Origin: Massalongia carnosa | Taxonomy: Eukaryota | Assembly: GCA_965645245.1 (NCBI GenBank) | Contig: OZ287067.1 | Span: 3,100,001-3,164,000, forward strand | Reading direction: 5' to 3' | DNA: 64,000 bases | In this document: positions 3,201-29,070 of the stretch, piece after piece | How positions within the stretch are numbered: the first letter of the stretch is position 1 | Layout of the letters: each line of letters opens with the position of its first letter | The notes under the pieces: model-generated | The model's input: only the letters and a program-made list of their open reading frames with translations | Database searches by the model: none | Told to the model about the DNA's origin: nothing | Made by a program: the position numbers and the translations under genes

Positions 3201-6200
3201 TTATGTAGCCGGAGATGGAACCTGTGGAGCTTCATAAGTAAAATCAGAAGCTAACTCCGTTGAACCGTTTAGGTTTTCCGTTTTCGCTCCTGCCGTTGCG
3301 TTTGTAGGCCTTTGCTGTGCCTGCAAATGCTGTCTTTGTTGCCGGCTTGGCGTCTGGGTATTTTTTCTTTGTATGGGAGTGGTATCTCCCTTTCTAGTGC
3401 CATCCATTGACGGGTTATCTTCCGGGTACATCTCATGATTTGATGACCCAAATCTGTTGAGCCGTTGATACTTGCCCCTTTCCACAGGTTTTCGTCCGTC
3501 CCGTACCTGTTGTGCTCGAAGTGCTGCACCATCGTCGCTCTCTTCAGTCATCACTCGGCGCTTCCGCTGTCGATATTCTCGTACATCATCCTCATTCACA
3601 CCACCATCTTGCCCTTCCCCATTTGCTTTATCCTCCTGCACAACCTCTTGGGCTTCGTCCGCTTGCCTACCACCTTGGACCTTATCATTATGCGCTGCAT
3701 CCTCATATGCTCCATCCTTATACGCTCCATTCCCGCGGGCTCCATCTTCTTGCTCGTTCTCTTGCGTTTGATGCTCATGCCTCCGTTCTTGCACTCCATG
3801 CTCTTGGCCCCTCTCTTGGGCCTCAGGCTCATGGGCTACCTCCGTTAGCCTCTCCTCTTGGCCCTCCACTTGTGCTCTATCCTGTTTTGGTCTGTGTTCT
3901 TTTGCTGGACTATTTTCGCCTTTGGGTGTTGAAACACTCACTTGAGTACCACCTTTTGGGACTGCGTCTATTGAACAGTTCTCCGCTTGTACTTCAGGTA
4001 CATTTTGATTGGCATCTATTCCTCCATACTCGAGCTCTAAGGAAGATGGCAATTCAAGATCTGCCAGTTCTTCTTGGCCTCGTCTTTGTAAATCACCTAT
4101 GTCTCGCTCGTCTCGCTCCAGGATTGTCTCTGACTCATTTAGCTCACTCCTAAATATCTCTGGCTTCACGCTCTTTTGCTCTCGTTTCTGCTGCAATTCA
4201 TCCCTCTTTAAGTCTTTATAGCGTTCCTCTTGCTTGTGCAGCTCGCTGATGTCTACCGTAAGCTTTTCTCGTTGTTCATTTTGCCTCAATTCTTGTTTCC
4301 CGAGATCAATTGCGTACTCCGCAAGCTTTTGTCGCTGTTCTTTTTGCCTTTGCTCTTGGTTCACGAGCTCTTCTGCGACCGCTGCGACAGCGCTTCGTCG
4401 TTCCTCCTGTTTTTGCTCTTGTAAAACTAGCTCCCTTGCGTCCGCCGCGAGTGTTCGTCGTTGTTCCTCCTGCCTTTGTTGTCGATTGAATTGCTCATTT
4501 TCTTCCCTCGCAAGAATTTGACGTTGTTCCTCTCGCTTTTGCTCTTGCTCTCTAAGGGCACTGGCGTCCCCCGTAAGCTTTTGATACATCTGTTGGTGCT
4601 CTTGCTCGCTTTCTTTCAGCGCGCTTGCGTCGGAGATAAGCTTTTGTCTTCGTCGCTCTTGCTCTTGTGCTTGTTCTTGCTCTTGTTCTCTGACTGCGAC
4701 GGCGTTCCTTGCAAGCCTCTGCCGGCGTTGTTCTTGTTCTTGCTCTTGCTTTTCGAGCGTGCTTACATCGGACAAGAGCTTTTGTCGTTGCTGGTCCTTT
4801 TCTTGATCCTCTTCTTCGAATACGCTTGCATCTCTTATAAGCTTCTGCCAGTACTGTTCTTGTCCTTGTTCTTGCTTTTCAAGTATGTTTGTATGAGACA
4901 AGAGGTTCTGTCGTCGCTGTCCTTGCTCTTGCTCTTGTTTTGTAAGTGCGCTTGCATCGGACACGAGCTTTTGCCGTTTTTGTCCCAGTCTTTGCTCCTC
5001 TTCTACGAGAGCATTTGCGTCCCCGTCAAGCTTCTGCCGATATTGCTCTTGCTCATACTTCTTTTTTTCAAGCACGCCTGCTTCCAATAAAAGCTTTTGT
5101 TGTTGCATCGTTGTTTCTTGTGTAAGAGCATCTTCTGGTTGGAACGGAGGTCCTTGTTCCTCTCCCTCTCCATCCTGCATCATTGTGTCTTCTGTTTGTT
5201 CCCCGTCAACCTCCATATGCTCAGCACCTCGTGTTGGGTCTTCTCTTGGCGAACAAGCCGATTGAGTCAGACGGAAAGCCGGGGATAATAGTTCTCCTGT
5301 CGCTGTAATGAGATTCTATTGTGGGTTGGAGTCGTCCAGCATCCCATAGAACTTCAAGTACGTGGATCTTAGCCTGAAGTAGGACGTGATCCCCTCGGAT
5401 TGTTCATACCTGTTGTCATGTAAATGAGTAATAAACAGAAATTTGCGGTCTTCTTCGTAATTTTGAGCATATGGCATTCCGCATCTGTCTTTTCTAATTT
5501 CCCCTGGACCATCCGTGACGAGCGCAGGCTTTTCGTTTCCTCTGACTATCGGCGGGTCTGCTGACTTTGGAAACTGCTTTAAGGCGGTGATCTCGGACGA
5601 CTCAAATCCTAAATGATTGGCTAGATCAGCCATCTCGCGCAACCTCGTTGTGTCTAACATAGCCCTTGGCTTTGCCAAAAGGTCCCTCCCGCTGGGCTTT
5701 TTGGGAATTTCGCGGTAGTAGCGCATAGCGAAGGCGCATAATTGTCGATATCCCAGGTCAATTCGACGAGCGGCGTTTGCTGGTACAGACTCGAACGTGG
5801 TCTCGTTTTCCTGCACCAGTGCCGAGTCTACGCTCTGATCCATACCGGTATATATCTTATTCATTGCCGAGGACAGCGTTTCTCGCGGACCTAGGCATAC
5901 CAGCCATTTTGAACATTCGGCCCATGCCTCAAGGCATTTGACATTCTCAAAGAATTCGAACAGAGAAGGAACCAGACCTTTGAATGACTGTAGCCTAATC
6001 CAGATCCCCTCGCGTTCTTGTTGGCTTAAATGGCAAAAGAGTTCCCCGCCCAGCATTTTACCACGGAGAATTTTGGCTTCCAGTCTTGATGCCCATGGCG
6101 CGGTGAGCTGTAACGCTTCCACGGTGGCTTGGTCTACCTTGGCCATCGCGGCCTGGTCTTGCTGAAGCAGGTCAGACCAGAATTGCTTGGTGTAGCGAAG

Positions 6201-6523
6201 ATAATGGATGATTTCCTAGCAATCAATGAGCGCATCCATACGGTCGGCGACGGAACGTTTACCTCATCGCATCTAATCGCGAAAATCTTATGTAGGGTAC
6301 TAATTCTCATCCCAGTTAAGAGCGCAGGTATCTCCAAGAAAGCATCAAAGGCAAGGGTGAACTCCCTATGCCGGAATAGTTGTTTTAAATTTCCGGCTCT
6401 ATGTGGAGAGAGAAGAGTCCACCATCGCATTTCCAAACTGGACTGCTTCTGGAACCGATAGTTGCGTATCTTCCTATAGACCTCACCGTCCGAGGGTTTC
6501 GCTTCGTTCGCGTACTCTTCCAT
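3201..6523 (-). pseudogene. DUF3723 Starship-associated protein with long coiled-coil repeat tail; in-frame TAG at 5316-5318, N-terminus apparently missing
   Basis: Motifs EEYANEAKPSDGEVYRKIR, RWW, CDE|EIIHYL, VDQATVEALQLTAPWAS, LVPSLFEFFEN, GYRQLCAFAMR. ORFs 5316-6146 and 3201-5216 are in the same frame, separated by one stop plus 33 sense codons. Intron ~6217-6262. Confidence 0.85.
4210..5102 (-). repeat. ~14 degenerate 63-nt (21-aa) coding repeats, consensus RQKLxxDAxxLxxQEQEQxxx
   Basis: Visible in the translation of ORF 3201-5216, e.g. RQKLVSDASALTKQEQEQGQR and RQKLLSDVSTLEKQEQEQEQR. Confidence 0.9.
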
Positions 6524-6812
6524 GCTGACAAAGATTGAGGATCAGAGTAGAAGGGAATGTAAGGCTTCTGGATCGCACCGTGTTCCCTGGGGAAAGTCTC
6601 CTAAGTCCATCGTTCCAAGAGCTTTAAATACCTTGAATTAAACTGATCCAATACTGGCTCATTCACAGGGGGGTCCACAATTGGAGCTAGGTGCCAGAAT
6701 TGGAAGAGGTGGCTGCACCGCCATTGTCCTAGGAGATCTGTCCTGAGCTGACTATCCCAGGACCATTAACACCACTTGACCCAGGACTGGCTCATCCTGG
6801 ATGCCTCTTCGC

Positions 6813-7194: not shown

Positions 7195-8061
7195 TTACCA
7201 TCCTTGTAGTGCATTCCTCTTTTGCCAAGCAGCATGAAGCGAATCTGTTTCTGTAGGTGAGTAGATATTGATCACTCGTGTGACAACCTGAGGACTATCC
7301 GGCCAATCGCATCTTGGTCCTTCTGAAGGCGTTTTGTGTATAAGTGAGACATCGGTCATGTACTGAGGTCCAAACATGCATATGCTGAAAGTGTCATTAG
7401 CCTTGTAGGCGGCGACATTACCCGTCTCGTATCTAACAGAGTCCAATTCTACTTTCACGATTGCGATCCGAGTGACGTCTTTAAGCACGAGCTGAAAGAT
7501 AGACATGGCAGCAGCCCTGTCTATGGTAGCATGACCTAGCTGGCTTTGAGGTGCCTCTTGTGCCAAAGTCGTAATTGGAATGGATATCTCAACACCAGCT
7601 GCGAGCCCTTCAATGGTGGCAATGGGCGTCGTATCCCAAAAGTTTGGAAGTTCAGCTGCTTCCGTGACCGTCATCTTAGTAGAACGCGTTATACTCAATA
7701 AGGCCTGTTTGGTCCAGGGGACGAGGTTGCCGTAATCGAAAGGTGGCCGAATCATGATTTTGAAAGGGACCACCTTTTTCCAGTGCATGGTGGCAGATTC
7801 TCGCATGAGTGCTTCAACTTGGCGGAAGTCAAGGCCTCGTCCCATCATGGTGATTCCTCCCATGTCCTCATTCTATTTCATGTGCTCGAACACGTCCCAA
7901 AGCAAGCTCAGATATGCTCTCTTTTCCCTATCTGATAGCCAGAAGCCGACCGCCCTCCGCAGTGCGAACAAATTGGCGCCCGAGAGGCAGCGCATGAGTA
8001 TGGTTCGACATTCAGGTATATCCTGGAACACCCTCCTAAACTTGGGCAACTCCATAGTCAT
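7195..8061 (-). pseudogene. hypothetical protein interrupted by in-frame TAG (7873-7875)
   Basis: ORFs 7873-8061 and 7195-7863 are in frame (ATG AAA TAG AAT GAG GAC ATG). Confidence 0.6.
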
Positions 8062-8468
8062 GCCTACATTTTCACCCCACTAATATATCAACTTTAGACA
8101 CTGATTCTGAAGACTTGAAAACTTTAGGTAAGATCTCTGTGATTTATCACGCAATTTCAGTAAACAATTTAATGAAACGTTGAAACAGGAAGAGCGACGC
8201 GGCTTTTGAAATCAGAGTCAAGAGCCATATCTGGATGGGAGCCGAATTCGGATGCAATTCTTTTAACGTGGCAGAGCTTCCATCCCCAATGACTTGAGGA
8301 TCGCTTGCTCTTGGAACATCTAGTTCTTAGTCGCAAAATCCTTCTTCTCCGGGACTAGGTTGTTTGGCTCTCGCAAATCGCTCACGGGAAGCATGGCCGC
8401 ATTGATCTTTCTCTGAATGCAGGGAATCTGGCTGTGCCAAGATTGGAATGCTATCAATAGAGAGCTGG

Positions 8469-11400
8469 TTATTTCACTGACCTAGAGTGTGGATCATTCT
8501 TTCCTTCGTCCACGTAGTCGAAAGCATCTACCAGCAGTGTTGAACCCGGAGCGGCATTCCGAATTTCATCGTCGGTGGCCAGCTCTATCTTGAACTGGTG
8601 GGTCTTCAGCTTGCTTGGGCTAGAGAGGATATCGAAGAGGGGTGCCAGCTTAGGTACATAGCTCCATAGGTGTGGGCGAAGCTCGGCGAGAGCTTCAACG
8701 AAGAGAGCCCGAGCGTCACATGGGATTTCGGTTTGGAAGCTACCGCAGATCAGTCGATGCCAATCAAACCTCATCATCGACACTTACGAAGATCCCGAAA
8801 TGCTCTGAGAAGCAGGCAGTATTCGAATATGATGCGGCACCAGAGCGAGAAGAGCGAGAGATGAGAACCGATTTTGGATGGAAGACCAGATAGCCCCCTC
8901 CTGTCTCCACCTCCTCAGGTTGCGCTGAACTTCCCAAAATGCGGATCTTTCGGCAGGATTGGGGGATGAGTCCCATCCTTTCATCTTTGGATATATCTTA
9001 ACCACCGTAGCTTTGACAGATCTAGTTACTGCGCAGCCGTTCTGGGACACCATGTGTCCAGCTCGGTCTTGGAAAAGGTGCGTCCCTTCATTGATTAGTG
9101 AGGTAAAATAAGCGCGCACGAAGCGTTGAAGGATGACATTGATGAGTCCGAGACGTTCTGTCCAAACGCCTACCGTGTACAGGTGGCTTGATAGATCAAA
9201 TGGTGCCTGGATAACTTCTTCTGGTGCCAGCACGCGGTAGTGAGCGACAGCGCCCTTTAAGGCGACGAAATGTTCAGGACAAGCGAACGCCGCCACCATT
9301 TCGAGGAGACGAGAGGCCCGCGTGTATCCCACTGGGGCTTCGCTTCTTTGGAGACGGCAGTCGGCAAAGCGCTCTAGGTACTTCATCCATGGGCACGAAG
9401 GGGACGACTTGAAGATGGTTGAGATGTTGGCCTTTATGGTCGCGAGATCCAGTCGCCAAGTGCTATCCTCATCCCCATCAGAGTCGCTTTCATCAACGCG
9501 AGCAGTTTGAGCTTCGACCTCTTCAATCTGCAATTTCCTCCGTTTCGCTCGTGTGGAGTCGAGATTGAATGCGTAGTAGCGAGGCGCAACACCAACCTGC
9601 CACGACCTTGAGGTGTCCGGATATAACACGCTCTTCAGCATGGTCTGCTCGCTAGCTTCGTGAAGAGACCTCGCCAATAATAATTCGGCGTAAAAAACCC
9701 TTAAGATATGCGCCTCGATTGGCGCTCCGTCGACGACCTCGCCTTGGCTGAGGCGTCTCGCATTCTCCAGAAGGTATATCCCGCAATCCGAGCCATTTGT
9801 CTGTTGATGTGAACTCTATAAAATCATCAGCTGACTGAACGTGTGAAGGGGAAAGTGTACTTACGCCTTCAAAGGGAGAATTCCAGCCGGAATAGTCTTG
9901 ACCGAAGTACTCACCGACCCGCTTCATTTGCGCCTCCACGAATTCACAACAATCACGCAGGTGATACCCAGGCAGTGAGCTGTAGTAGCTTATAGTTCGG
10001 ATCGGAATATCCACCACGATCAGGATCCAATGATCGCAGGGGTTATGCGGAATGATTATGCGTGTATGTTTCCGTCCGATTGGCCACACGGGCCCGTCCA
10101 GCATCTCCTTTCTCTTTTCGGCGTCATTGATATCGAATTCTGTATGCTTACTGTGTAGGACTGTCGTAGATTCGCCCCACCCGAAAAGCGATAAAACACA
10201 CATGAGTGGGGACGTCGAAAGCCAATGCGAGGGGAGAAAGGGACTCAAGTCTTCTCTCACTTCTTCCTTCGTTCTGGTCCTGAACTGCACATCGGAATAA
10301 TCGCCGATGGAGATCAGTTTAAGCTCAGCCTCTTCGATCACTTCATCGACAGTCTGCACTTTTGGCTGAAAGGCGAAGGCACAGGAGAGACGCTGGGAAC
10401 CGTGTCCCGCCTCATCTTCCCGCAAGGAAGGTTCGCGTGCGGCAAGGTCTCGCACCCAGTAGTCGCAGTCCATTTCGAATATATGATCGACCACGGGCTT
10501 GAAAAATGCCCTCGGAGGAGGTTTGTTGTTGACGTATATCACCTTCACCCTTCCGACGTACCGCCGGAATCAGCTTGTTCTTGAGCTCGTACCTCGGACC
10601 GTCGATGGCCAATGATGTACCAATGACCAGGAGGACATCCGGCGTTGACTCCGCATCTTCGTCAATGATCCTCGCTTTTGCCTCGCTTAGAGGATCGTCA
10701 ATATCGTGGAAGAGGACAATGTTAGGTCGCAAATGTCCAACATGGATTTTCGTTCTCCCTCCCCTTCTCCGCCGTTCTTCTACCTTTGACGCGCATTCAG
10801 GACATGATACGATCTCCCCGGAAGCAAGAGCGGTCTCGCGCACGCCATCCCAGCTTGTGAAATGGCTGCAATAAGAGCACCTGAAGGAGTCAAGGTTGCC
10901 ATGCAGCTGGACCACGTCGCAGTCTTTGGACTCGATATCAGCATTCAAACCAGCCCTTGCCTCCAGTCCATCCAGATTCTGGGTATAACATCTTTGCAGC
11001 TTTCCGGATCTTTGAATGACTTGGAGGAATCGATGCGTATCCGTCTGAATCAGATCTTCGGATTTCGTTTTGTTCCTGATTTCGATCAAGCACTTATACA
11101 ATTCTTTGCGTCTTTCTTCATCATCGAGCACTTCTCTCTCGAAAAGACCTCGATTCGATTCGTCTTGTGAAGGCCAGTCTCAGATCGAAAGTCCTGGATG
11201 ATTGTTATTTAAAGATGGTCAAAAGTATAGATCAATACTCACGGGTATACCACAATTAGTACTTATCCCGGCGCCCGCGAACACGATGATTCGACGAGCC
11301 TCGTTCATAACACTGGCGACCTTCTGCAGCTCTTGCTCCACATCGTTCGTGATGTCTCTCGGTGTTAGTAGGTATCGCCAGAGTGAATAGTATAGGGGAA

Positions 11401-11890
11401 AATACCTAGCGGGTTTATCACTGGAGCGGATTCGGTGCATCCTCTCTCGGTATCGTCCATCGACATATCTGGTGAGACAGCTTGCGAATCTTCTTGGGTG
11501 GATGCTCTAGGACCCGCCGTCGAGGAATTTATACCATTTGGGTTTGCTTGATTACTAGCAGTCGTAATGAAGCCAGTTTTATTTTGCGGATGCACAGTTC
11601 GAGTGGAGACCAGCCCTGCTTTGTTGTTTGGCGGAGTCGTGTTAAGCGTAGTGTTTGGCTGTGGATGAGCCGCTGGAGGCTGTAAGACCTTTTCGGTTTC
11701 TCGCCCTTTCCCGGAGAGTCGCCGAATCTCCGTCTGAAGGACGTCAATGATCTTGCGGTTTATATTATCGTCTTCTTCAGGATTTGATTCCTTTAGCAAA
11801 CTCCTGAGAGAGCGTTCAAACTAGGAAGAAACTTAGCAGTCTTTCGAAGGATATGCCGGACAGCCTCACCTTAAGAGTTCGAGCATCCAT
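8469..11890 (-). pseudogene. Sirtuin (Hst3/Hst4-like) - Ulp1/C48 cysteine protease - unknown C-terminal domain fusion, two frameshifts
   Basis: Sir2 motifs GAGIS, GIP|DFRS, YTQNLDGLE, QLHG, CSYC/CPEC, RPNIVLF, IGTSL, VIYVNN. These are followed in the same frame by C48 motifs WL, HW, D and, after intron 9816-9864, QQTNGSDCG, which reads in frame into ORF 8784-9677 and, via an intron, into 8469. Frameshifts at ~11135 (extra AG) and ~10546. Confidence 0.8.
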
Positions 11891-12455
11891 TGTAGATGTT
11901 GAGATGTCTGTAAATGGTCATTTCCTGAGAGAATCCGAACATCTGCGAACATTTTCGGCAGACCAAGAGTCTATGTCTTGTCGACTTAGGATCTAAATTT
12001 GCGGTAGCATCCACAATCGGCTCCAGACATTGGCATCCATAACAGGGGCCTCTTTCGAACAGCAGCATCCAAAAGCGAACCCCTGGTCCTATACTCGTCG
12101 TTGGCGCAATTTAACACTATCGATTTGCTCATCCTGCAGCGAGAAGCCAAGGGGAAAGCGAAGAAGGCGAAACGTTCCGGACTACATGAACCGCCAACAA
12201 GAAATGGTGATCCGGTTGACCGATTTTTCAAAATAGAGGCTGAAATTTAAAATACAAGTAGAATATTAGAGATGGCCAAGGGTTATTATTTTCAACGTAA
12301 AGCCGGTGTAAGCAAGGCTGTGAAATGCATAACAGCTAACCCAACCGTCTACACCCACGCTATTCAGAGGTTCAACCATAGGCGTGGCTTTCAATGTGCT
12401 CCGTAGGCCATCCGTAAACGCTGGCCGAGAAAAGCAAAATAGCTTCAGACCTTAT

Positions 12456-15165
12456 CTATTGAACGATATCAGTGTTCGAGACATCCTGTGAAATCTCCAA
12501 GCACCCTTTCATATCAAGGTCTGCAAACTCATTGCTGATTCTGATATCTGGAACGTAGTTTCTGGCGTAGGCGATCTCATCTTCGCTGATTCCAAGCTCG
12601 TCCTTTGGAATCCAGACAACAGGGCTGCGATGATCAGCAGCCTCATGCTTGTACCCACGCCGATCTGTTACATTGAGCTCGTTCCGTGCTAGCTCGTCAA
12701 CACTTTCTTGGAGATCTTGGGGGACTTCCTTGGAAGGTCTCATCCAGCCATAGCAGGTGTACCTTAGGTGTCGTAAATGATCGAGCGCAGGTGCTGAGGA
12801 ATGATTCCCTTTCGATTCTCCTCCTTCATCCTCCCTGTCTTTCGGGAAGGCAGGCAGATATTTGAGAATTGAGGAGAAGATGTTTCCCAGAAGCACTTGG
12901 TAAATGACCGTCAATGCTGTGGCAATCATCATAACCACGGCCTGACCAATGCCGGTAAAGACACCCTGATCATCGCGAATAGACAGGAAAAGGCCTATCA
13001 GGCTAATTCCATCACGTAGACCCCTGTAAAGAGTTGCTTCAGAGCAGTCGGATAAAGTTGACCTCCAGTATCGTACGGGAAAGCCGACACGTAGAGCAGG
13101 TTGTAACGGAATACGAACCAAAACAAGCTGAAGGTGGCGACGCTGAACGGGAGTATCAGAGGAGCGACGATGGAGTACGTGAGGCCTAAATTATCAGCAG
13201 AGGCGTCGACAAAGATGCAAGTGTCTTACCAATACATGCGAGGTTCGTGTAAAGAGGGTAGAATGTACCCCATCGAATCTCCGGTAAACCCATCTGTCTC
13301 TCCCACTTCTGCCTCGGTGTGCGATCCGTCCACGGGGCGATGATAAGCCAGTTAATTAGACCTCCGGCTTGCAGGAAGGCTCCTGCACTCACCGAAAGGC
13401 CTTGTAAAGTGAGGTAGGAGAAAAAGTAGTTGCTCGCCTTGGGAAGGTTTCTGGCCAACAATGCGGGTGCAGATTTCGGGCCATGGAGGAGTTCTTGAGC
13501 GATGGCCGTAATACTGGATGAAAGCAACACCGTGAGAAAATTTTGCTTGAAGAGAAAAACGAAATAGTATTTCTGCAGCGACAGCTCGACCGTCGTCTCC
13601 GTTGACAGACCTTGCCAACACGTGATGATGCGCAGGACCAGCGGCAGCAATGCGTTCAGTGCTACTAACATCAACTGCGGCAGCACACCTTGAATAATCC
13701 CACTCAGCCACGCCGGAGCGCCAGATACCCAGTGAAGCCACGACACGGAGTCTCCGAGGGTAGTAATCTGGGACAGGAAACCCGTGAACGCAACGGGTAT
13801 CGCCCACGCTATGAGAAGAAGCGATGGCGATCCACACCAACCCATTCCGTATATATCGATTCCACCATCGTTGAGTCAGAGTGCTCCATCTCAATTCCCG
13901 TACGGAAACGTTGATGTGTCGGGCGGATGAATGCAGAGGGTTGGCGCTCAGGAGGGTTTGACAGGCCATATACGCGGCGGATTGAGTGTTGAATCGTATA
14001 AAGGCGGATTTCATTCGTGGATACCTGCTTGATTCTCTCCCATTCGACTCGACCTCGGCCAGCTCCATTGATTCTGCCCTGATCTCTTCGTTCATTCGTG
14101 CCAGCTCGCCTAAGCAGTGGTGGATGGTATCAACCTTTTTTCCGATGAGAGGAAATGCTGGCATCCATGCGCATCCTTGTCGTGGAATATACATATGATC
14201 ACGGTCCTTCTCCTTCAGGTAGCGCCTCCACAATGGTCCCTCCTTTTCTGTATCCGCCCCACTCGATTGTGCAACCTCGTGGCTCTTACGTTGACGGAAC
14301 GACTTCGTTGCCGATGATATGAGGTTGGTCTCTGCGACTTCTAGTGTGGTGGCGAGCTTTTTTCGCTCTTGGATCTTCTCCGACAGAATGGAGAGATCTC
14401 GATTGATCCAGACGGAATGGACTCCACCGGGAAATATAGCGTACACATCCTCCAATACTGGAAGGCCCTCCTCGGGAATGTCGGTCACAAGAATCGTGTT
14501 GGCGGCCTCTGAGAGACGGTGCGCAGGTGAGACCAGGTATGAATTACGGACGTGAATGTAGAAAAGTAGTTCCACGTAAATGGTGTAACATATGAACACG
14601 ATCACAAGCAAGGCCATGAACAGATGGGCCCAGTAAAATGCAGTGTGATCGAGCCCGATATTCGCCCAGCTGTACCTGTCGAGACCTTGGGTTCCACCTG
14701 CAATATCATTGCCACCAAGTAGGTTCAGGGGAACAAGGCATGGTATGATGACGACCGATAGGCTGGTGAAGATGGTGAGGAGAGTGCGAATATATCGAAT
14801 GAAGAAGAAAGCGTCTAAGCCCGAGTGCTGTAAGATGATTGTGTCGGGAAGCTGGAACATACGTGGGATCCAGGATATGGTACCTGAAGGACGTTGAATT
14901 GTGCGTTGTCCTTCAGGCACAAGATAAGTTCGAGGTTGACTGTCATACCGACTCAGTATTTTTGTGCTTGGAAAGTGACTGGGGCTCACTAGATTTGTTT
15001 GAGCCTATCCTTGAGAAGAACAAATACACAGACTTCGGTAGCAAATATGGCCACCGATGTTACGAGCGATGCCAGAAAGTTTCGGAGGGAGAGCCCTTGA
15101 GCGTGTCTTGCTGCTTCTGGTGAAGCGTAGAGCGCAGTGCCAGCACTGTCGAGCGGGGATGCCAT
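12456..15165 (-). pseudogene. CSC1/OSCA (DUF221, RSN1-like) calcium-permeable channel, frameshifted
   Basis: YQPRTYLVP, GLDAFFFIRY, GLDRYSWANI, TILVTDIP, SAFIRFN, LPKASNYFFSY, DTGGQLYP motifs; frameshifts at ~13820 and ~13003. Confidence 0.88.
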
Positions 15166-15795
15166 TGTCGTCGTTCAACCAGCGCTCTCGATATTTTTTT
15201 TCCAGATGGTATTGTTCGCGCAGCCTTCGGTGGAGCAAGATTAATTTTAAGGATTTCATGTTGAGGTCCAATTCTTGCTCCCCCAGCTTCATGTGCATCC
15301 CATAGTGGCTCCCTTCTGCTCCGGTTTTGCTGCATTCTCCGTGCTCAGGATCATAATGGTAACCCACTGTCCGGTCATAGGCTCCAGTTCAAGCACGAAT
15401 CCGAATTTTCCACGGCCGCGATTTGCGCGGCCATTTCTCCACTTCCCATCATCGAGCGCAAACTGATCTGGTCACAGTGCAAAATCTTCTACCGTCAGTA
15501 TTTCTCCGCAAAAAGGCCGAACATCTTGAGAGAAGTCCAGGGCTGTCGCAAACACTGGGATGGAGGTTTATCTTAAAGCTTTCAAGCTTTAATGCGGCGC
15601 CTAACAGCTGTAGGATTTGAGTCGCGGTTTCTGAATTCTGACAATTGTCAGACGAGTCTTTGTCCAACATTCTTCTAGTCAGAGAAGGAGCCGCGTAAAT
15701 TCAAAGAAAACGGCGCAGAAGCCATCAATGCCAAGGAGAATGAATGATGTCCAATATGCCTTAGTACGAAGCATCCTGATTACTCTTTGCGTTAC

Positions 15796-16776
15796 TCACC
15801 AATCCCCCTCAATTACCTTGATCATATCGTCAGCTGCATTAGTCTCTTCAACTTCATCATCTGTATCCCAGCCTGCTTCATCCTCAAAGTCACTGGCGAA
15901 CCCTTCGTTTGATGTATCTGAATCCCCGTAAAAGGCAGAGGATGGATCGGAGGGATCGCTCGTGACTTACTTCATTAGCTTTGTAATCCTATTCTTGACC
16001 AAAGACTTACGAGAAAGTTGGTTCATGGCGGTCGACAAGTCAAACGCCGTGTCACCACGGGACTTGGGCAGCCGTCCCACTCTAAATCGCCTAAAAGCAG
16101 GCATGATAATTTGTTCATACCAGTCTTCATTCGTAACAAGGTCCTCCCATAGCCATTGACCGACTATCTCTCTTTCAGTGACCTGCCAAAGACAAACATA
16201 GTGATCGACGTAGTATTGATTCGATTTCCCGTACGGATCTGGTATCTCATAATGATCCATCTCAGCGGCAACATCGAGGACAGGTAAATAGTCTCTTAAA
16301 CGAGTATTGGGATCTATAACGGTGAGAGTCTGGACACCTCTGTAATTTCGTTGGGACCTGAAAGTTGCTAAGTCTTGAATGGCCGCTGGTGAGATTGTGA
16401 ACGAGATGTACGGTGTTGGGGTCCATTCTTTGTGATTCAGGTGCGTAGTCAAGGAGGTCTTCCGAGACTCGATAGTGTCAAGGCGTTGAAGTGGCGCTCT
16501 CGACGTCATGCATCCGGTTTCGTCTGGCTGGCTTCCTGAACAGCGATCCCAGACTCTAAGCAGCGGTCTATCAAAGGATTGGGAGCGACCGGTACTCCAT
16601 GAGTGTAGCTGCTCTTCCGTTACAAAAACGGTCTTTGACTCAGGACTTAGAAGAGTTGAGGTTTTGGGGTTATTAATGACAGCCATCATCGAGGGGATAT
16701 GTTCGCGCTCCGGCTGATGGTTCTGGCAATTGATTTCACTCGTTTTGTTTCGATAATTTGCATGCTGCAGGTACAC
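15796..16776 (-). CDS. hypothetical protein, possible ADP-ribosyltransferase-like fold with acidic tail
   Basis: 269-aa ORF with LLRVWD and TPYISFT; probable intron near 15960-16010, then an acidic exon ending EGDW-stop. Confidence 0.55.
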
Positions 16777-18037
16777 AGATGTTCAGCACAACGGTCTTCG
16801 TCCGAGCTTAAGCTTACTGCGCGAGAGCCGTGCTCCTGGGTAGTCACAGACGTTGTGATCCGGTATCACCAAGGCGTGCCGTCAAGCCCAGATTGAGGCG
16901 GTCTGCGTTATCTCTAGGATTCTCGTCGATTAAGGGTCTTGGCGCGACTGCTCTAGCTGACGTGGCCTGATCCGGGTTACCCGGACCCCTGCGCCAATCA
17001 TGGCTGCCCATGATCAGTGATTCAATTGCCTAGAAAAATGCCAAGCCCAATCTATTTCACCATGGATTTGCACATACCCCGACTGCACCGCGCCGGCCTT
17101 CTTGACATGCATAACTTGCACCTCGAACGGTCTTTGAACATCCACAATCCACGTCCTCGATTGACCAGCGTTGTGACAGCCACGAATCGGAACGCAGGGC
17201 TGGTATGGACTGTGGTCTAATGCTGCTCATCATGCCTTTCAGCAGCATCCCAATTGAACTTGTCTTTCCCATTCCTTGCGGGTGACGTTTGAAGTCCGTC
17301 AAGTTCGAGCTGGAAATCTATGAAAGCAACAGAATACAACTGTATAGCCAAGAAAGAGCTGCGGAAGATCGGATGGAATTACAACCTGTGAAGATATGGG
17401 GAAAGATTCAAGAAACTGCTGCACTTTGCAATCCGGAAAGGGCACAGAAACATCATCAAACTCCTTCTCAACACTGGCGTGGACGTTTCGGCTACAACCT
17501 GCTACAAAAGGACCGTACTACATTACGCTGCGATTGGAAAGCATGCAGATGTGTTTTAACTACTCTGGGAAGCGGGTATCAATGCCTCTCGGAAAGGATT
17601 GTTTGGGATGACAGCGTCCGGCTACACTGTCTCATCCACAATGGTTGATACCCGAGAATACGTCCGCGTCAGCGTCCCTCGAACGGCCATGAGGTGTGAA
17701 ACATGACGCCGCGATGTGGTTTCCCCTTTGGACCACGCTTTTCCGCGGATTGCCTTCCCCACCCCCAATCCATGATCTCAATTTCTCTAGCAAGAGGTCA
17801 ATTCAACCACGATGTCTTCTTTACAGAGTACCGCAAACGCCAGAGACGCACCAAACACGATTCGTAAGGAAGTACCGCTATGTGCCTGGCCGTTCGAAGG
17901 AATCTCACAAGGGGGTCCGTTTATGGATGCTTCCACAAGCATCCAAAGACTGACGCACTGGTCAAAATACCACAAAAGGCAACGACGGCCCCGAAATTAT
18001 TTGACACAGACGATTCTCTTGACCCTTCAACCACAAG

Positions 18038-18920
18038 ATGAAGAAATCCTGTCATATTGCTGTTTTGGCCCTTGCGGCTCTGGTAGCTGCAAGTCCGTTC
18101 AACTGCCCGGCGGCCGCAACTGTGACTGTGACTCTCGGGGACGGACATTCGACACCTGCTTCAAGTTCCATTCCAGTCACGAGTGCTCCAAACCCTGTAA
18201 GCACCACAGGCACCGATGGCTCAGCCAATTACATGACGATTTCGATCACGAATGTGTACGGAAGTCAATTATCTGTCCTTTCTTTCCAACGCTGGCGGCC
18301 CCGCCCCGGTAGGAAATCCGTCAGCGACCGTCCTCCCCGACAACTCGCCTACCCAATACGCTTTCCCAACTGGATGGGCAGGAAGGATATACGTTGGACC
18401 CAACACCGACTATCGCAGCAGTAAGATCGAAGGCAGTCTTACAGGTCCACCTGATATCGACGTCAGCTATGTCGATGGCTACTCTGTCCCCATCACATGC
18501 TCTTCTGAGGGCACAGCGGTTTCTGGTTGCAACATCGATCTATTCAAACAGCCAGGCATCACATGTAACAGTCAAGTCGACGGCCCTGTCTGCCTCAACC
18601 CCGCTCAGAACATCGCGGATGGACCCGCTCCTCCTTTTTTCAAAGCTTGCGCAGGGGCTGCCTACACTTATCCTAATGATAACAAGGCCAACGTAAGCAA
18701 CCTCAAGAGTAACGTGGTTTCTTGTTGCATCGGGACGTCTTGCCAAGCACCCTCAAGGCAACTAGTTCAAGGAGGAAATCCAATGGACATACAGATCAGG
18801 AATGATGAATCACGGGCAGAAAAAACACATGGCTCCTCACCGTTGACACTTCCGCTGGCACATAAACTTGTTCACCATCATCACTCGCCCCGATCCCATG
18901 TCCACAGAAAGGTTCACTAG
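18038..18920 (+). pseudogene. secreted thaumatin-like (PR-5) protein, frameshift at ~18272
   Basis: Signal peptide MKKSCHIAVLALAALVAA and S/T linker in one frame; TGWAGRI, DVSYVDGYSVPITC, CAGAAYTYPND in another, with no intron signals between; His-rich tail. Confidence 0.8.
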
Positions 18921-23449: not shown

Positions 23450-23791
23450 GGGATAGAGCAGCGGATATCGTTCTTGTATTTAATTCTTAGTCAACTTCAC
23501 TCCGAGTTATTTTTCTGCGTACTTAGATAGTTCCATCAGTATGAAATCTTGTCATCGCAAGCTCCTTGGCTGCAAATCTTTTGCTGTGGACAGTGTTCCT
23601 TATGTTTGAAGTGATGGCAAAAGAAGTTGCCCTCCCGTCGCCAAAAGCGGATCCATCAAAAGCATCGAATTATGGATGACTGTCCGTACTATTAAATCCC
23701 GTATGGCGTCCCCTTCTTCTTCCGATCGACATTTTGTCATTCCATCCATCGAATCTGGCTTGCTTCTATTAAAACTTGGTCGACCGTGCGT

Positions 23792-25304
23792 ATGGCTTCT
23801 TCCGAACAACTGGCGTGGTTGCAGGTAGTTGGCATAAACGATCTCAGGCTTCTCGACCCTGGTCGCATGAGCCAGTTGGTAAGGGAACTGAAAAATCCCT
23901 CGAATCAACGACCTTCTTCCCTATTGTTCGTGGGACGACAAGTCAAGGATCTTGCTCTTCGGGAACTTTTCCCCGACAACAACTTCAAGAAACACTGTTG
24001 CGACGGTGTGGCGACCTTGCGAATCGACAACGCAAGCACTTACTCCGATCATCCTATCTTTTTTGCGGAGAGTAGCCCAAGTCAAGCGATACCCTTGGCA
24101 GCCGAGGATCCTCAAGTCTGTGAGACCGAGTCATTTCCCATCCAGTGGGCCGAAGATACGACTGTGCAACACCTCTACAACGTCTTGCACGCCCGCCTCT
24201 TCTGTCTCTTCGCCGATGTCGTCTGCGTGTTTGCTGATGACTTTGCCGACTTCGAACAAACCGTCCAATTGCTGAAGTCATGGGCCGCGGCAGGCAGCGG
24301 GTCCGTTCATTTCGACAAGATTCGACCGAGAGTTGTTATCGTTAGACGTGGAGACGCAGCCAGTCCCAGTCCCACCTATGATCTTCTCAGGATAGACGAT
24401 CTCCAGCAGGGCCTCCACAATAGAACTCTGAAAGAATTCTTCTCTTCGATCAAAGTGCTCCACCTGGCCACTGAGCAGCTGTCTCCCCTGGCACGTTTTC
24501 GACGGCTCAAGGAGCTCCTTTGGAGGGAGATGGACGAGATGCGCCAAGCGCGACAAGAACTCGGCTGTCTATATTCTGCTGAGCACATCACTCGGTTTTT
24601 TCGCATGGCTGTAGCCCACACGGCAGTCTCAATGAGTCGGCCGTTCGATTTCATATTGGCGAGCCGGAGGGGCAACGACGTCGAGCCAGATTTCGTTCAC
24701 CACTTGTCCAGATTTATGCGATCCGGAGAGGACCGCCAGGTTCCACGGGACGCACTGATGACTTTCGTTGCTTCAAGTATCATGTTGGACGCATATCCCC
24801 CAAAGATGCATGGTAAGACAATCCTGGCTTTGGCGAATATGGATGCTCAACATCTGACTAAAATCCGCAGTTTTCGATCCAGGGATGCTTTATGACGTTC
24901 AATATCGGCATCTTTGCCTTCAGTCCCTTACTGAGACGTACGATGACCGCGATCTCGTTCAGCACCAGGACACCTTCGTTCGCAGCCAGTTGATTGAACT
25001 TCATTCCTCTATGATCGCATCCGGGAAGCCCATCCTACAGATGCACCGAGAGAAGACGGCTTCTCTCGATATTGATTGGGTGCAGATGAAGAGCAATGAA
25101 ACCTGCTTTGGTTGTATTCGACGAATGCCTGAGATCACTCTTTCTTGTGGACACGCCATATGCGAGGTTTGCGTTCGAAACATCGGCGATGAAACCTCGG
25201 CCTTTGACTCTCAATATCGGATTGACGAGAAGTACAGTCTTAGGGCCCAGTGGCTTGCCTGTGAAATGGAGAGATTTCCATACATAACATGTATGCAGAC
25301 GTGA
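23792..25304 (+). pseudogene. Starship-associated patatin-like phospholipase, N-terminal half only (catalytic patatin domain absent)
   Basis: QRPSSLLFVG, ARLFCLFADVVCVFADDF, PFDFILASR, LDAYPPKMH|FDP, KSNETCFGC-RRMPE-LSCGHAICEVC; coding ends after QYRIDE with no DGGG/GxSxG. Confidence 0.8.
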
Positions 25305-25479: not shown

Positions 25480-28432
25480 CTATGATGGAAGCATAATAGG
25501 CTGCGGGTCGGACTCGTTGAGCAGTCTCGGGTCGATTGATAAGGGAAGGTCGGAGTTGACTGACGACGCCGGCGTCGGGTTATCGAGTGCGGTCTCGTCC
25601 GAGGTCCAATCAATGATCGAAAGCGGGCTTTCAGAGCCTGTGAAAGATGCTGCCGACGAACTTCGCTTCTCCTGATTTGCTATTGAGTCGATCGAAGGAA
25701 GAGAGTAACTTTGACTGAGGCCATCTTTATCTTCCATTCTCACTGGTCCCGTAGGAACGATAAGGTCGAGTGTCTCGAGCATTGGCGAGTCCATTGTTTC
25801 ATTGACATGCTTGTAAGGACTTTCCCCGTTCAGGAGGTCACAATGGTTCTCCAGCTTGACGTTCGCGCTGAGGAAAGCCTTCACATTCAGAGAAGACTGA
25901 CGTGTCAAGCGACGCCTTTTGATCGGATCGAGCTTGATGCGCTCAACGCAATGTACATCCTGACAGTGACACTGAAGATCTTGAATCGAGTCGAAAGAAA
26001 GTGCACAGCGTGGATCAGGACATGGGACAACCTTGCTCTCACCCTGTTCCATGGACCGGTTGTACCTATCTTCTAAATGCAAGAAATGTTCTTGCAGGTG
26101 CTCTTTCCAGCTCTGTTTAACGAAGAATTGATGGAAACGTTTCGTTGGTGAGAGCTTCAAATCGAAGAAACAGAAGAGACACTGCCCAGCAGTAGCAAGG
26201 GTTCGGCGGAAGATAAGTGGATTGCATTGAACTGGGAGCGTCTCGAGGTCGGTGAGATGGCGTTGACAATGCTCAAACCATCCGGCCCCACTGGTGATCC
26301 ATTCGTCGCACTGAAAACAGAGCTCGGCAAAGCCGTATTTCCTTTCAAGGTCGCCCTTGTGGCAACGGTAAATATGTTCCCACCTATCGCCAATACTGAT
26401 GCTGTAGAATCGAAGGGTGTCTGGTCAGCGAGTCCGCAACAACCGAGCATTTGGGAAATGAGAAAGGAGAAGACGAACCGATCCATATCCCTCGCACATT
26501 TGGGTACAGGGCAACGACCGTTTTCAGGCCGTAAGCTTGGACGATACGCCACCCGCGGATTCTCTATGCACAATGTGATCATGTCCTGAAGTGCGCTGCG
26601 GCCCTGCACACTGCGGAGGGGAACGTTGAGGAAGAGCAAAGATGCCAGCCGATCACGTGGCGGATCCAAACGGCGAATCCGGTTGAAGTAGCTTGGCAGA
26701 CTTGCGACTTGAGGTGCTTCATCCTCCGTGTTTGAGGCAATCTTGCGTGGTTGAATCTGCTGCCACTTGCTGAGCTCCTCGGACACGAGCTGGCGTTTCC
26801 GCCAATACAGTTCCTCTCGTCGAGCCCGAGTGGGCTGGGCTTCATCTTCTAACGTGATGCCCCGAAGCTTCTCCCCCAGTATTTCGATCTCCTTGTTAAT
26901 GGAGATGAAGTCGGCACAATTATCCAGGTTGGCTTCCACTTTTGCGGGTAGCGATTGCAACAGCTGAGGATGGTGATGGAGCGATAGCCCACGAAATCCT
27001 TCAAGATGGACAGTGCGACGTTTCTTGTTCCAGTAGCTGGCCATCCCGTCCACAGTGCTCAGCTCAGGCGCGTATGAGCCAAAGAAAGTGTCTGCGTTGT
27101 TATGGCCGGCGAATTTCATCCTTTCGGCGATCGAGTAGCCATTATCTTTAGCCGAGTCAGTGTTTCTCAACGGTTGTGTTTCGTCCACAAAAACTTACCA
27201 TCGGCTTTGACAAGGGCTTCTCTTCGAATATCATGTATCCCGATGTTTTCCTCGTACCCGGCCCGATGTCCCAGATCCACCGTCCGATTGCTGAAGGAGC
27301 TCGCTCCATGGATCTTTCCGGTGGGTCCATCCGCAGACACTATCTGGAAGAAAGGTACACGAAGTATATCCTTCCTGATTCGAAGGTGGTGCAAGGACCC
27401 ATCCGGAGGTGGTGGAATCGCCTCGATCTCTTCGAAAGACCCATAGTCCTGGAAGGCGTGATCCGCGAGGGCGATTGCCAACAAAGGTAGCACTGGGTTC
27501 GCAAACAGCGGCTCCATGTCCTCATACATGCCATGCTGTGGCCTAGAATCACACCGGAACAGTCAGCAAGGATTGCCCCTAATCATGTTTCCGAAGCTTT
27601 GGACAGCGGAGTAACCTTTTGTGTGGTGTCTGTGAAAAGCCTTTTGCGTCCCTTGTGACTCGCACACCAATCTCCGCCTCTCCTTTTTCATTCTTAAATA
27701 CGGCGAAATCGATTGTCTGCTCGCAGCGTAAGCGCGATGCCCGACAGCTTTCTTAGTCAATAGTGCCTTAGAGGATCACTCCACTCACCTCGTATAGTAG
27801 TCCACGGCCGGAGCCTCTGCGCATGTTGGATTCAAAATACTCGCCCACTCGCGCCGACGAGTAGATGAACAGCATATAGGCAGCGTGGTCCTGTGCGAGG
27901 ATCCGTCCATGTCTGTATTGATGCCAATCTTTCGGCCACATATGCTTGATGACAATGGCGAAGTGGTTCACCGTCATGAAGTGCCGAGTTCGCCGAGTCG
28001 CTTCCAATCGGCGCCAAAGTCTGTCCGCTTCTGAAGCATGGTATACATAGACGGCTCCTTCTTACCGGCACTGCAGCCGCGCACAACACCCTCTATGAAG
28101 TGCTTTGCCGTTTTTATAGTGTGAGGACTGGCACCAGGGTTCCTTCTAACGTACCTAGTCCACCGAGACAAGACACCGTCAGTAAGGGTCGTACAATATT
28201 TCGTAGTGGTGGGGGAAGACATGAAGACTCACTCATCCCAGAGGACCAGCATCCGGTTATAGTTGATTTCAGTGCCAGACTCGAGGTGCTTGGACACCTT
28301 GTCGCTATTGATATTGACCTCGATCAAGGACTCCAGACCATTCGTTTCCGCATCATCAAAGAACTGCGCTGCAGTCCTCTTTTTCTGTATTATTGGAGTC
28401 GAGGTTGGGGAATGCCCTGGCTACCGAGACGT
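25480..28432 (-). pseudogene. DUF3435 tyrosine recombinase (Starship captain), inactivated
   Basis: Spliced translation contains SSARVGE (R), DAKG (K), NPVLPLLAIALAD, HDIRRE (HxxR), AGH...SY (H,Y) and C-terminal Cys/His zinc-finger-like motifs; 5 GT-AG introns. Start context ACG TCT CGG TAG (28432-28421) and a frameshift at ~28000. Confidence 0.92.
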
Positions 28433-28836: not shown

Positions 28837-29070
28837 CATCGACGAAACGGGCGTTAGCGGGAGAGCAAAGCGGCGGCACCTTAGTCAGCGAACGGTCACG
28901 TGTTGGCTTGGGTTCGGGGAAGATATATATCTTTATATCTATATAGCTAACTATAGAAAGAATATCATACATACTTCTAACAGAACATGCTTTCAAAAAC
29001 TCCCGCCAACTCCCCCTTTCGTAAAAACTCTAATAAATCTGTGCAATCATAACGCCTGTCCAGCCCGAGC

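Follow-up and report, generated by a model that had tools for sequence, protein, structure and literature searches.

Why should a transposable element carry a sirtuin deacetylase and a Ulp1-type protease joined in one polypeptide? This question is raised by a gene in a 64,000-nt stretch of the Massalongia carnosa genome (contig OZ287067.1, positions 3,100,001 to 3,164,000; hereafter, the window), which is part of the cargo of a Starship element. Positions are given as 1-based positions of the window, and C1:n denotes coordinates on its own contig in the same genome. The gene belongs to a mobile family of three-part genes that rides in a conserved Starship cassette of lichen-forming fungi. It lies on the minus strand, with an ATG at 11890, a stop at 8469 and six exons with a spliced length of 3177 nt, and the product consists, in this order, of an Hst3-derived sirtuin, a C48 domain of the Ulp1/SENP fold and a helical tail. 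The original prediction, made from the sequence alone, had proposed a sirtuin, a C48 protease and a C-terminus of unknown sequence within a single gene at this position, and the six-exon model and the matches to PF02146 and PF02902 support this architecture. The parts of the gene are as follows.

8469-11890, minus strand: sirtuin-C48-tail fusion pseudogene, exons 11890-11870, 11820-11406, 11355-11243, 11193-9865, 9815-8788 and 8739-8469
11406-11890, minus strand: low-complexity N-terminal arm of about 150 amino acids (exons 1 and 2), variable across the family
10460-11330, minus strand: Hst3-type sirtuin domain, from PF02146, the tree and the motifs GAGIS, DFRS, TQNLD, QLHG, CxxC...CxxC (zinc ribbon), GTSL, IYVN and DCD
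11145-11156, minus strand: frameshift 1, a 5-bp tandem duplication near 11150, not present in relatives or RNA contigs
10543-10548, minus strand: frameshift 2, a 2-bp deletion near 10545, just ahead of KVIYVN
9640-10350, minus strand: C48 (Ulp1/SENP-fold) domain, from PF02902 (above the Pfam cut-off), the fold match to Ulp1/SENP and the SENP1 alignment
9380-9640, minus strand: disordered linker with a basic KRRK stretch and an acidic run, from the motif and from a predicted local distance difference test score (pLDDT) below 50 at model residues 230-291
8469-9380, minus strand: all-helical tail domain of about 300 amino acids, from the model; it has no Pfam family and is also found behind sirtuin-less C48 domains

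All five introns are canonical GT-AG introns of 48-50 bp (11869-11821, 11405-11356, 11242-11194, 9864-9816 and 8787-8740). In a Pfam search of the open reading frames (ORFs) of the window, SIR2 (PF02146) matched in 10415-11179 with an E value of 1.2e-23, and Peptidase_C48 (PF02902) matched in 9655-10569 with an E value of 1.1e-4. The ORF at 9655-10569 holds both the end motifs of the sirtuin, KVIYVNN...DCDYWV, and the C48 domain. This single ORF across the junction, together with the full-length annotated proteins described below, rules out two separate genes. The C48 domain is split by intron 4, with its Cys half downstream, and the catalytic His of the sirtuin, in QLHG, is encoded by codon 10903-10901. 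The KRRK stretch of the linker appears similar to a nuclear localization signal.

The window copy is a pseudogene, which cannot make the full protein. Its translation ends after 218 amino acids because the 5-bp duplication and the 2-bp deletion shift the frame; two frameshifts in the sirtuin part had been predicted. With an X placed at each break, the read-through protein has 1057 amino acids and shows 88% identity to P0037 (Alectoria) and P0067 (Dirinaria), and 73% to P0081 (Acarospora). The frameshifts are real, since one contig from a run of another study (X4) covers 8200-12200 with five substitutions and no gaps, and an assembly error as their cause was thereby ruled out. Contigs of a second run (X3), probably from the same study as the genome, matched the region exactly. 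A supposed third frameshift near 11400 turned out to be intron 2.

Relatives of the gene show the same architecture in intact form. Five proteins were longer than the junction ORF and matched it, all with SIR2 and three also with a recorded C48, and 19 proteins matched the C48-tail region. Full-length single-protein members, mostly recorded from metagenome-assembled genomes, are annotated in Alectoria, Dirinaria and Acarospora, in addition to a model from Psora, and the orders with full-length annotated members are Lecanorales, Caliciales and Acarosporales. The original prediction had called for a search for intact SIR2 plus C48 proteins in fungi and had named two separate genes in the homologues as the finding that would speak against it; the homologues found are full-length single proteins. 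Scanning metagenome contigs gave 80 loci. The fusion family accounts for 43 of them (L014-L056), which form 27 groups at 97% identity, and both catalytic His positions are covered in one gene at 34 of these 43. The NAD-binding motifs, zinc ribbon and catalytic His of the sirtuin are all present in the seven unbroken loci (both large exons free of stops and frame breaks), and also in the pieces of the window copy.

Purifying selection acts on all three parts of the fusion. From four distinct intact copies (six pairs, with synonymous divergence, dS, of 0.35-1.5), the ratio of nonsynonymous to synonymous divergence (dN/dS) was 0.09-0.12 for SIR2, 0.17-0.23 for C48 and 0.15-0.26 for the tail. The family is also transcribed. 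RNA contigs skip intron 3 and carry neither frame break in both of the two RNA runs, and one polyA contig of a relative covers 10215-10667, which takes it from within the sirtuin to within the C48 domain. These contigs are spliced RNA of related family copies, distinct from the window copy, and none covers a full-length transcript.

The surroundings of the gene are conserved as well. An RSN1/CSC1 gene stands beside the fusion in 28 of the 33 loci with at least 3 kb upstream, and DUF3723 is near it in 23 of the 30 loci with at least 4 kb downstream, as compared with 0 of 4 host-type sirtuin loci, where the fusion loci are not independent of one another. A thaumatin-like gene is near the fusion in 14 of 51 loci. 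Two loci (L027 and L039) have a different setting, with a ferric reductase and DUF3723; in L039, a fragment of a C-5 cytosine DNA methylase (15620-16231) lies 4.5 kb from the fusion copy as a second gene of chromatin type. The fused sirtuin cores of the window, Alectoria, Dirinaria and Psora are 80-92% identical, while their own Hst3 cores are 61-65% identical. This high identity may be a sign of horizontal movement, although metagenome-assembled records could mix fungi. Only Hst3 was matched in about 20 Teloschistales proteomes, where the 90% clustering of the database can hide fusion members, and the distribution of the fusion seems to be patchy. In Psora testacea, one annotated protein (P0018) has a SET domain attached to the same helical tail. 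It may have arisen in the gene model, by the merging of a tail remnant with a methyltransferase next to it; a search for SET-domain neighbours prompted by this protein found none in 51 loci and none in the window element.

The fusion gene is Starship cargo, as had been proposed, from the captain, DUF3723, the terminal inverted repeats and the TA-tract flanks. The element's 5' end, CTTCCCCGAACCC, is at 28922, directly after a TA tract. The 3' end, ...GTTCGGGGTG in inverted orientation, is found 20 kb left of the window and 49.0 kb downstream at C1:3079922, and is followed by a TA tract. The terminal inverted repeats, CCCCGAAC at 28919 and GTTCGGGG at C1:3079931, are each placed against a TA tract, and a sister element on the same contig (40 kb, C1:888086-928442), with a 91% identical captain, has the same ends. 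The 3' end motif, CCTAAGTTCGGGGTG, occurs at 22 genomic sites on 11 contigs, whereas a control pattern occurs at none. Five of five further 3' end sites abut TA tracts with unrelated flanks, which points to independent insertions. Ends of this kind mark out a Starship lineage that targets TA tracts and has at least 22 end motifs in a single genome. The end motif is far commoner than close captains, of which the genome has two copies, and this suggests many non-autonomous or decayed derivatives targeting TA microsatellites. The element and the genes of its cassette in the window are listed here.

1-28922, minus strand: in-window part of the 49.0-kb Starship (G000:C1:3079922-3128922), from its ends and captain
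25483-28370, minus strand: captain, tyrosine-recombinase-like, the first gene from the 5' end, from its motifs and a DUF3435 match on one exon (E value 0.0011, below the Pfam cut-off)
18237-18920, plus strand: thaumatin-like small protein gene, often in the cassette (PF00314, E value 0.0012, below the cut-off)
12459-15004, minus strand: gene for an RSN1/CSC1-type membrane channel, next to the fusion on its upstream side and a conserved cassette member (PF13967, PF14703, PF02714 and PF12621)
7198-8050, minus strand: gene without assigned function, next to the fusion on its downstream side and a conserved cassette member, from related loci
5319-6541, minus strand: DUF3723 gene, of a Starship auxiliary family (PF12520, E value 2.7e-73)
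3204-5315, minus strand: long coiled-coil-like ORF after DUF3723, in the conserved cassette, from the ORF list and related loci

The captain starts about 550 bp inside the element's 5' end and has the motifs SARVGE, HDIRR, FAGH and FFGSY, which we take to be catalytic. Its C-terminal domain matched four of ten fetched loci, all four of them DUF3435-positive. The window captain lacks 156 bp at 27998 that are present in the sister element, and is probably broken. Co-location of a captain with the fusion was shown in this genome only; in the fetched loci, the 10 kb next to the fusion showed neither captains nor element ends, which is expected from the distance of 13.5 kb here. A second fusion copy at C1:1.02-1.05 Mb is interrupted by a 16.6-kb insertion and has stops throughout, and its differences are dominated by C-to-T and G-to-A changes (292 of the main-block differences), a pattern like that left by repeat-induced point mutation (RIP). 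Both fusion copies in this genome are therefore dead.

The origin of the sirtuin part was read from a tree of 52 rows, in which Hst3 labels come from database names and Hst4 is represented by a single, long-branched row. Among sirtuins outside the fusion, Hst3-named proteins come closest, with 31-37% identity. The 14 fusion rows form one clade (100/100) with a stem of 1.84, nested in a Pezizomycotina Hst3 clade of 35 rows (100/99; 14 fusion, 20 Hst3 and one unlabelled). The Hst3 of the genome itself is separate from the fusion clade, and its Hst4 is outside the Hst3 clade. According to this tree, the fusion sirtuin is Hst3-derived. An Hst3/Hst4-type sirtuin had been predicted; the Hst3 assignment holds, and an Hst4 origin is not favoured. 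The genome has six ordinary sirtuin loci, Hst3 and Hst4 among them, and three ordinary C48 loci, all separate from the fusion, so that the fusion as a common host gene, the other outcome named in advance as contrary to the prediction, is ruled out for this genome. The C48-tail module also occurs without a sirtuin in P0105 and P0117, and by alignment in P0114, with 26-31% identity in the tail, and it seems that an Hst3 copy joined this older module.

The fold of the C48 domain was assessed from a model of C48 plus tail (mean pLDDT of 67); a single-sequence fold of P0037 had a pLDDT of 36 and was not usable. The model matched Ulp1 in Foldseek with an E value of 1e-7, and Ulp1/SENP structures were the top matches of the domain, with Z scores of 16-17 and root-mean-square deviations (rmsd) of 2.5-3.5 (for 1euv_A, Z of 16.9 and rmsd of 3.4 over 201 residues). 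The Z score was 15.4 against a NEDD8 protease, near those of the SENPs, and 8.6-10.5 against viral CE-clan proteases. The sequence HW...YYDS of SENP1 aligns gap-free with HW...YYSS here, the Asp of YYDS being 17 residues past the His; we take this Asp to be the third triad residue of Ulp1/SENP. In the window copy, the His is codon 10032-10030, the third triad position is a Ser (AGC, 9981-9979), the oxyanion Gln is present and the Cys is codon 9785-9783. The His, Gln and Cys are kept in seven of seven unbroken loci, in register with SENP1. The C48 domain has the right fold and most of the active site, and is without one defining feature, the triad Asp. Since this Asp is replaced by Ser or Asn, protease activity and SUMO specificity are only predicted. 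Of the residues named in the original prediction, HW, D and a spliced QQTNGSDCG, the His, Gln and Cys were confirmed and the D was not. For the tail, searched as part of the C48 plus tail model, the best fold match had a Z score of 5.3, within background; an Atlas search gave no usable match for the tail and only a weak CE-clan lead (0.76) for C48 plus tail, and a PDB sequence search returned generic sirtuins only.

What would such a protein do for its element? The original prediction had suggested a dual chromatin-mark eraser that could modulate silencing or repair around the element. We propose, with a probability of roughly 0.4, that intact copies are nuclear enzymes which, guided by the tail and to the benefit of the element, strip chromatin or repair proteins of both the acetylation of histone H3 at lysine 56 (H3K56ac) and a ubiquitin-like mark. 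The sirtuin part would perform NAD+-dependent lysine deacetylation, most likely of H3K56ac like Hst3. Hst3 and Hst4 take off this mark (PMC11433216). The C48 part, in which His, Cys and Gln are kept with a Ser or Asn third, would free nearby chromatin or repair proteins of a ubiquitin-like modifier, which is more likely to be SUMO than NEDD8 or ubiquitin, and the helical tail would direct the enzyme. The target would be a replication-coupled genome-maintenance pathway resting on H3K56ac and on SUMO/cullin signalling, and the element might gain in excision, repair or escape from silencing. In yeast, Ty1 is restrained by RTT109, RTT101 and RTT107, which are H3K56ac, cullin and SUMO-scaffold genes, respectively. 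The boldest version of this proposal is a dedicated Starship counter-defence enzyme, one polypeptide that erases H3K56ac and a ubiquitin-like mark, disarms a host pathway limiting transposition, is aimed by a new helical domain and has spread horizontally across three lichen-fungal orders; we regard it as unlikely.

Several results weigh against the dual eraser. The third triad residue is Ser in 30, Asn in 9 and Asp in none of the 39 loci covering the position, and Ser in 13, Asn in 9 and Asp in one of 23 proteins. The window copy reads WLST at the place of WLND, the SUMO-contact motif of Ulp1, and the fold alone cannot name the substrate, as judged from the closeness of the NEDD8 protease score of the model to those of the SENPs. 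The long stem of the sirtuin clade suggests that the substrate of this part may have changed. Unbroken loci are only 7 of 43, or 4 of the 27 distinct groups, and most copies are full of stops; therefore, the gene gives its element no shield from RIP-type damage. The sister element lacks window 375-25367, the fusion included, and the fusion is therefore not needed for transposition. Finally, H3K56ac removal favours silencing and SUMO removal tends to oppose it, so that the two activities point in different directions.

The loss of the triad Asp, almost family-wide, yet not shared by the sirtuin-less relatives P0105 and P0117, fits also with a protein in which the sirtuin is the sole enzyme, and the weakened or dead protease is kept as a reader of SUMO or another ubiquitin-like tag that recruits the deacetylase to tagged chromatin. 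The higher dN/dS of C48, about 1.5-2 times the SIR2 value, agrees with this. However, the His, Gln and Cys are invariant in the unbroken copies, which is unnecessary for a pure binder, and Cys-His-Asn triads function in papain-fold proteases; we consider a reader possible, but somewhat unlikely. The C48 domain could instead be a self-processing protease which, in the manner of viral CE-clan proteases, cuts the polyprotein or another element protein and thereby frees the sirtuin or the tail. The disordered linker after C48, the fold shared with the viral enzymes and the altered SUMO-contact motif would suit such a role, but the fold is much nearer to SENP/Ulp1, and no conserved Gly-Gly site was evident by eye in the aligned linkers, which makes it improbable.

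Two further explanations were weighed. As host-benefit cargo, the gene would be an extra Hst3-type regulator of DNA-damage tolerance, secondary metabolism or stress response in the lichen fungus, unrelated to transposition. Purifying selection, the RNA from related copies, the existence of a sister element without the gene and the neighbouring membrane channel and thaumatin-like genes are all compatible with this idea, and a Starship-borne Sir5-type sirtuin has been tied to climate adaptation in Zymoseptoria (PMC11231334). On the other hand, most copies are broken and tolerated, including both in this genome, and the gene stays next to DUF3723, with no settled host-gene version among the loci read; we are doubtful of this explanation. 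A neutral passenger, that is, a chance fusion spread only by the spread of Starships, would explain that 36 of 43 loci are broken or partial and that the gene is dispensable in the sister element. This is very improbable and largely refuted by the selection signal, dN/dS staying at 0.09-0.26 in each of the three parts at dS values reaching 1.5; the catalytic motifs, retained across copies with 55-90% divergence, also speak against it.

The fusion differs from the known systems to which its parts can be compared. It shares the NAD, zinc and catalytic motifs with fungal Hst3 (class Ic sirtuin), in whose Pezizomycotina clade it is nested; unlike Hst3, it has a long stem, C48 and a helical tail in place of the low-complexity C-terminus, and it is mobile, multi-copy and mostly broken, whereas the same species has a distinct gene for its host Hst3. 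It shares the fold (Z of 15-17) and the His, oxyanion Gln and Cys with Ulp1/SENP and NEDP1/SENP8 of family C48, from which it differs in the Ser/Asn for Asp, the WLST for WLND, an identity of about 20% and the fused sirtuin. Both parts are separately known as Starship cargo: Table S7 of PMC11162782 has at least 16 Peptidase_C48 rows and at least two SIR2 rows, and no row with both among those listed. The same source gives DUF3723, FRE, PLP and NLR as Starship auxiliary genes. Starship-linked sirtuins with a proposed local epigenetic role are the Swordfish Sir2/Sir5 of Zymoseptoria tritici, which is carried by the Starship and, unlike the fusion, is a Sir5 duplicate (PMC11231334), and a sirtuin beside Starships in Cryphonectria (PMC11848846); the main texts of these two sources do not mention Ulp1, SUMO or C48. 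A captured Ulp1 domain is also found in a transposon-encoded protein tied to anti-silencing, Kaonashi (KIU)/VANC of the plant Vandal MULEs (PMC13317346). That likeness is claimed for C48 only. The carrier is a plant DDE transposon and the partner is a DNA-binding VANC and not a deacetylase, and the role of the KIU Ulp1 domain is unknown in plants according to the same source. The Tangerine Starship of Xanthoria resembles the present element in being lichen-fungal, with a captain, DUF3723 and short terminal inverted repeats, and neither a sirtuin nor Ulp1 or C48 is named among the cargo in its main text (PMC13486527). The original prediction knew of no characterised protein with this architecture, and no description of a sirtuin-Ulp1/C48 fusion, as a conserved, transcribed and apparently horizontally moving family, was found in the literature searched, most subscription journals being outside its reach.

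How Starships persist against host silencing and repair is little understood, and the fusion family is a concrete, assayable candidate: a conserved and expressed cargo protein that unites two known enzyme folds and for which intact orthologues exist. The question of why many transposons carry Ulp1 domains becomes testable in fungi, tied to a second activity with a predictable substrate. If the role is an ordinary benefit to the host, the significance is reduced to that of a new domain architecture.

Some further features of the element and its surroundings were observed. The element also contains a DUF7587 gene (15970-16782), which was not seen next to the fusion in the related loci. The gene at 23696-25304 faces the captain, has a weak RING finger and resembles the N-terminal part of Starship patatin-like genes; no patatin domain was detected in it by Pfam. 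Outside the window, at C1:3080001-3100000, the cargo includes an NFX1/ZNFX1-like AAA helicase with an RZ zinc finger, a RecQ-like helicase, a PhyH-like gene and DUF7924, and a hAT transposase is nested in the same part. At C1:3067484-3079910, a second element shares one TA tract with the 49-kb element, to which it stands head to tail; its length is about 12.4 kb and its ends are the same. Of the captain 5' region it retains remnants only, and it carries a kinase, an ankyrin-repeat gene and DUF6594. The sister element carries HET, an OTT_1508-like deaminase, zf-MYND and APH, and the 5' end of another element, oriented the other way, stands back to back with it at C1:928473. In the genome as a whole, DUF3435 matched 69 times, at about 20 loci, which represent many Starship captains of other lineages. 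Outside the element, the window contains a CHAT-domain ORF of 1162 amino acids at 50489-53977 and a DDE_1 transposase fragment at 54697-55521.

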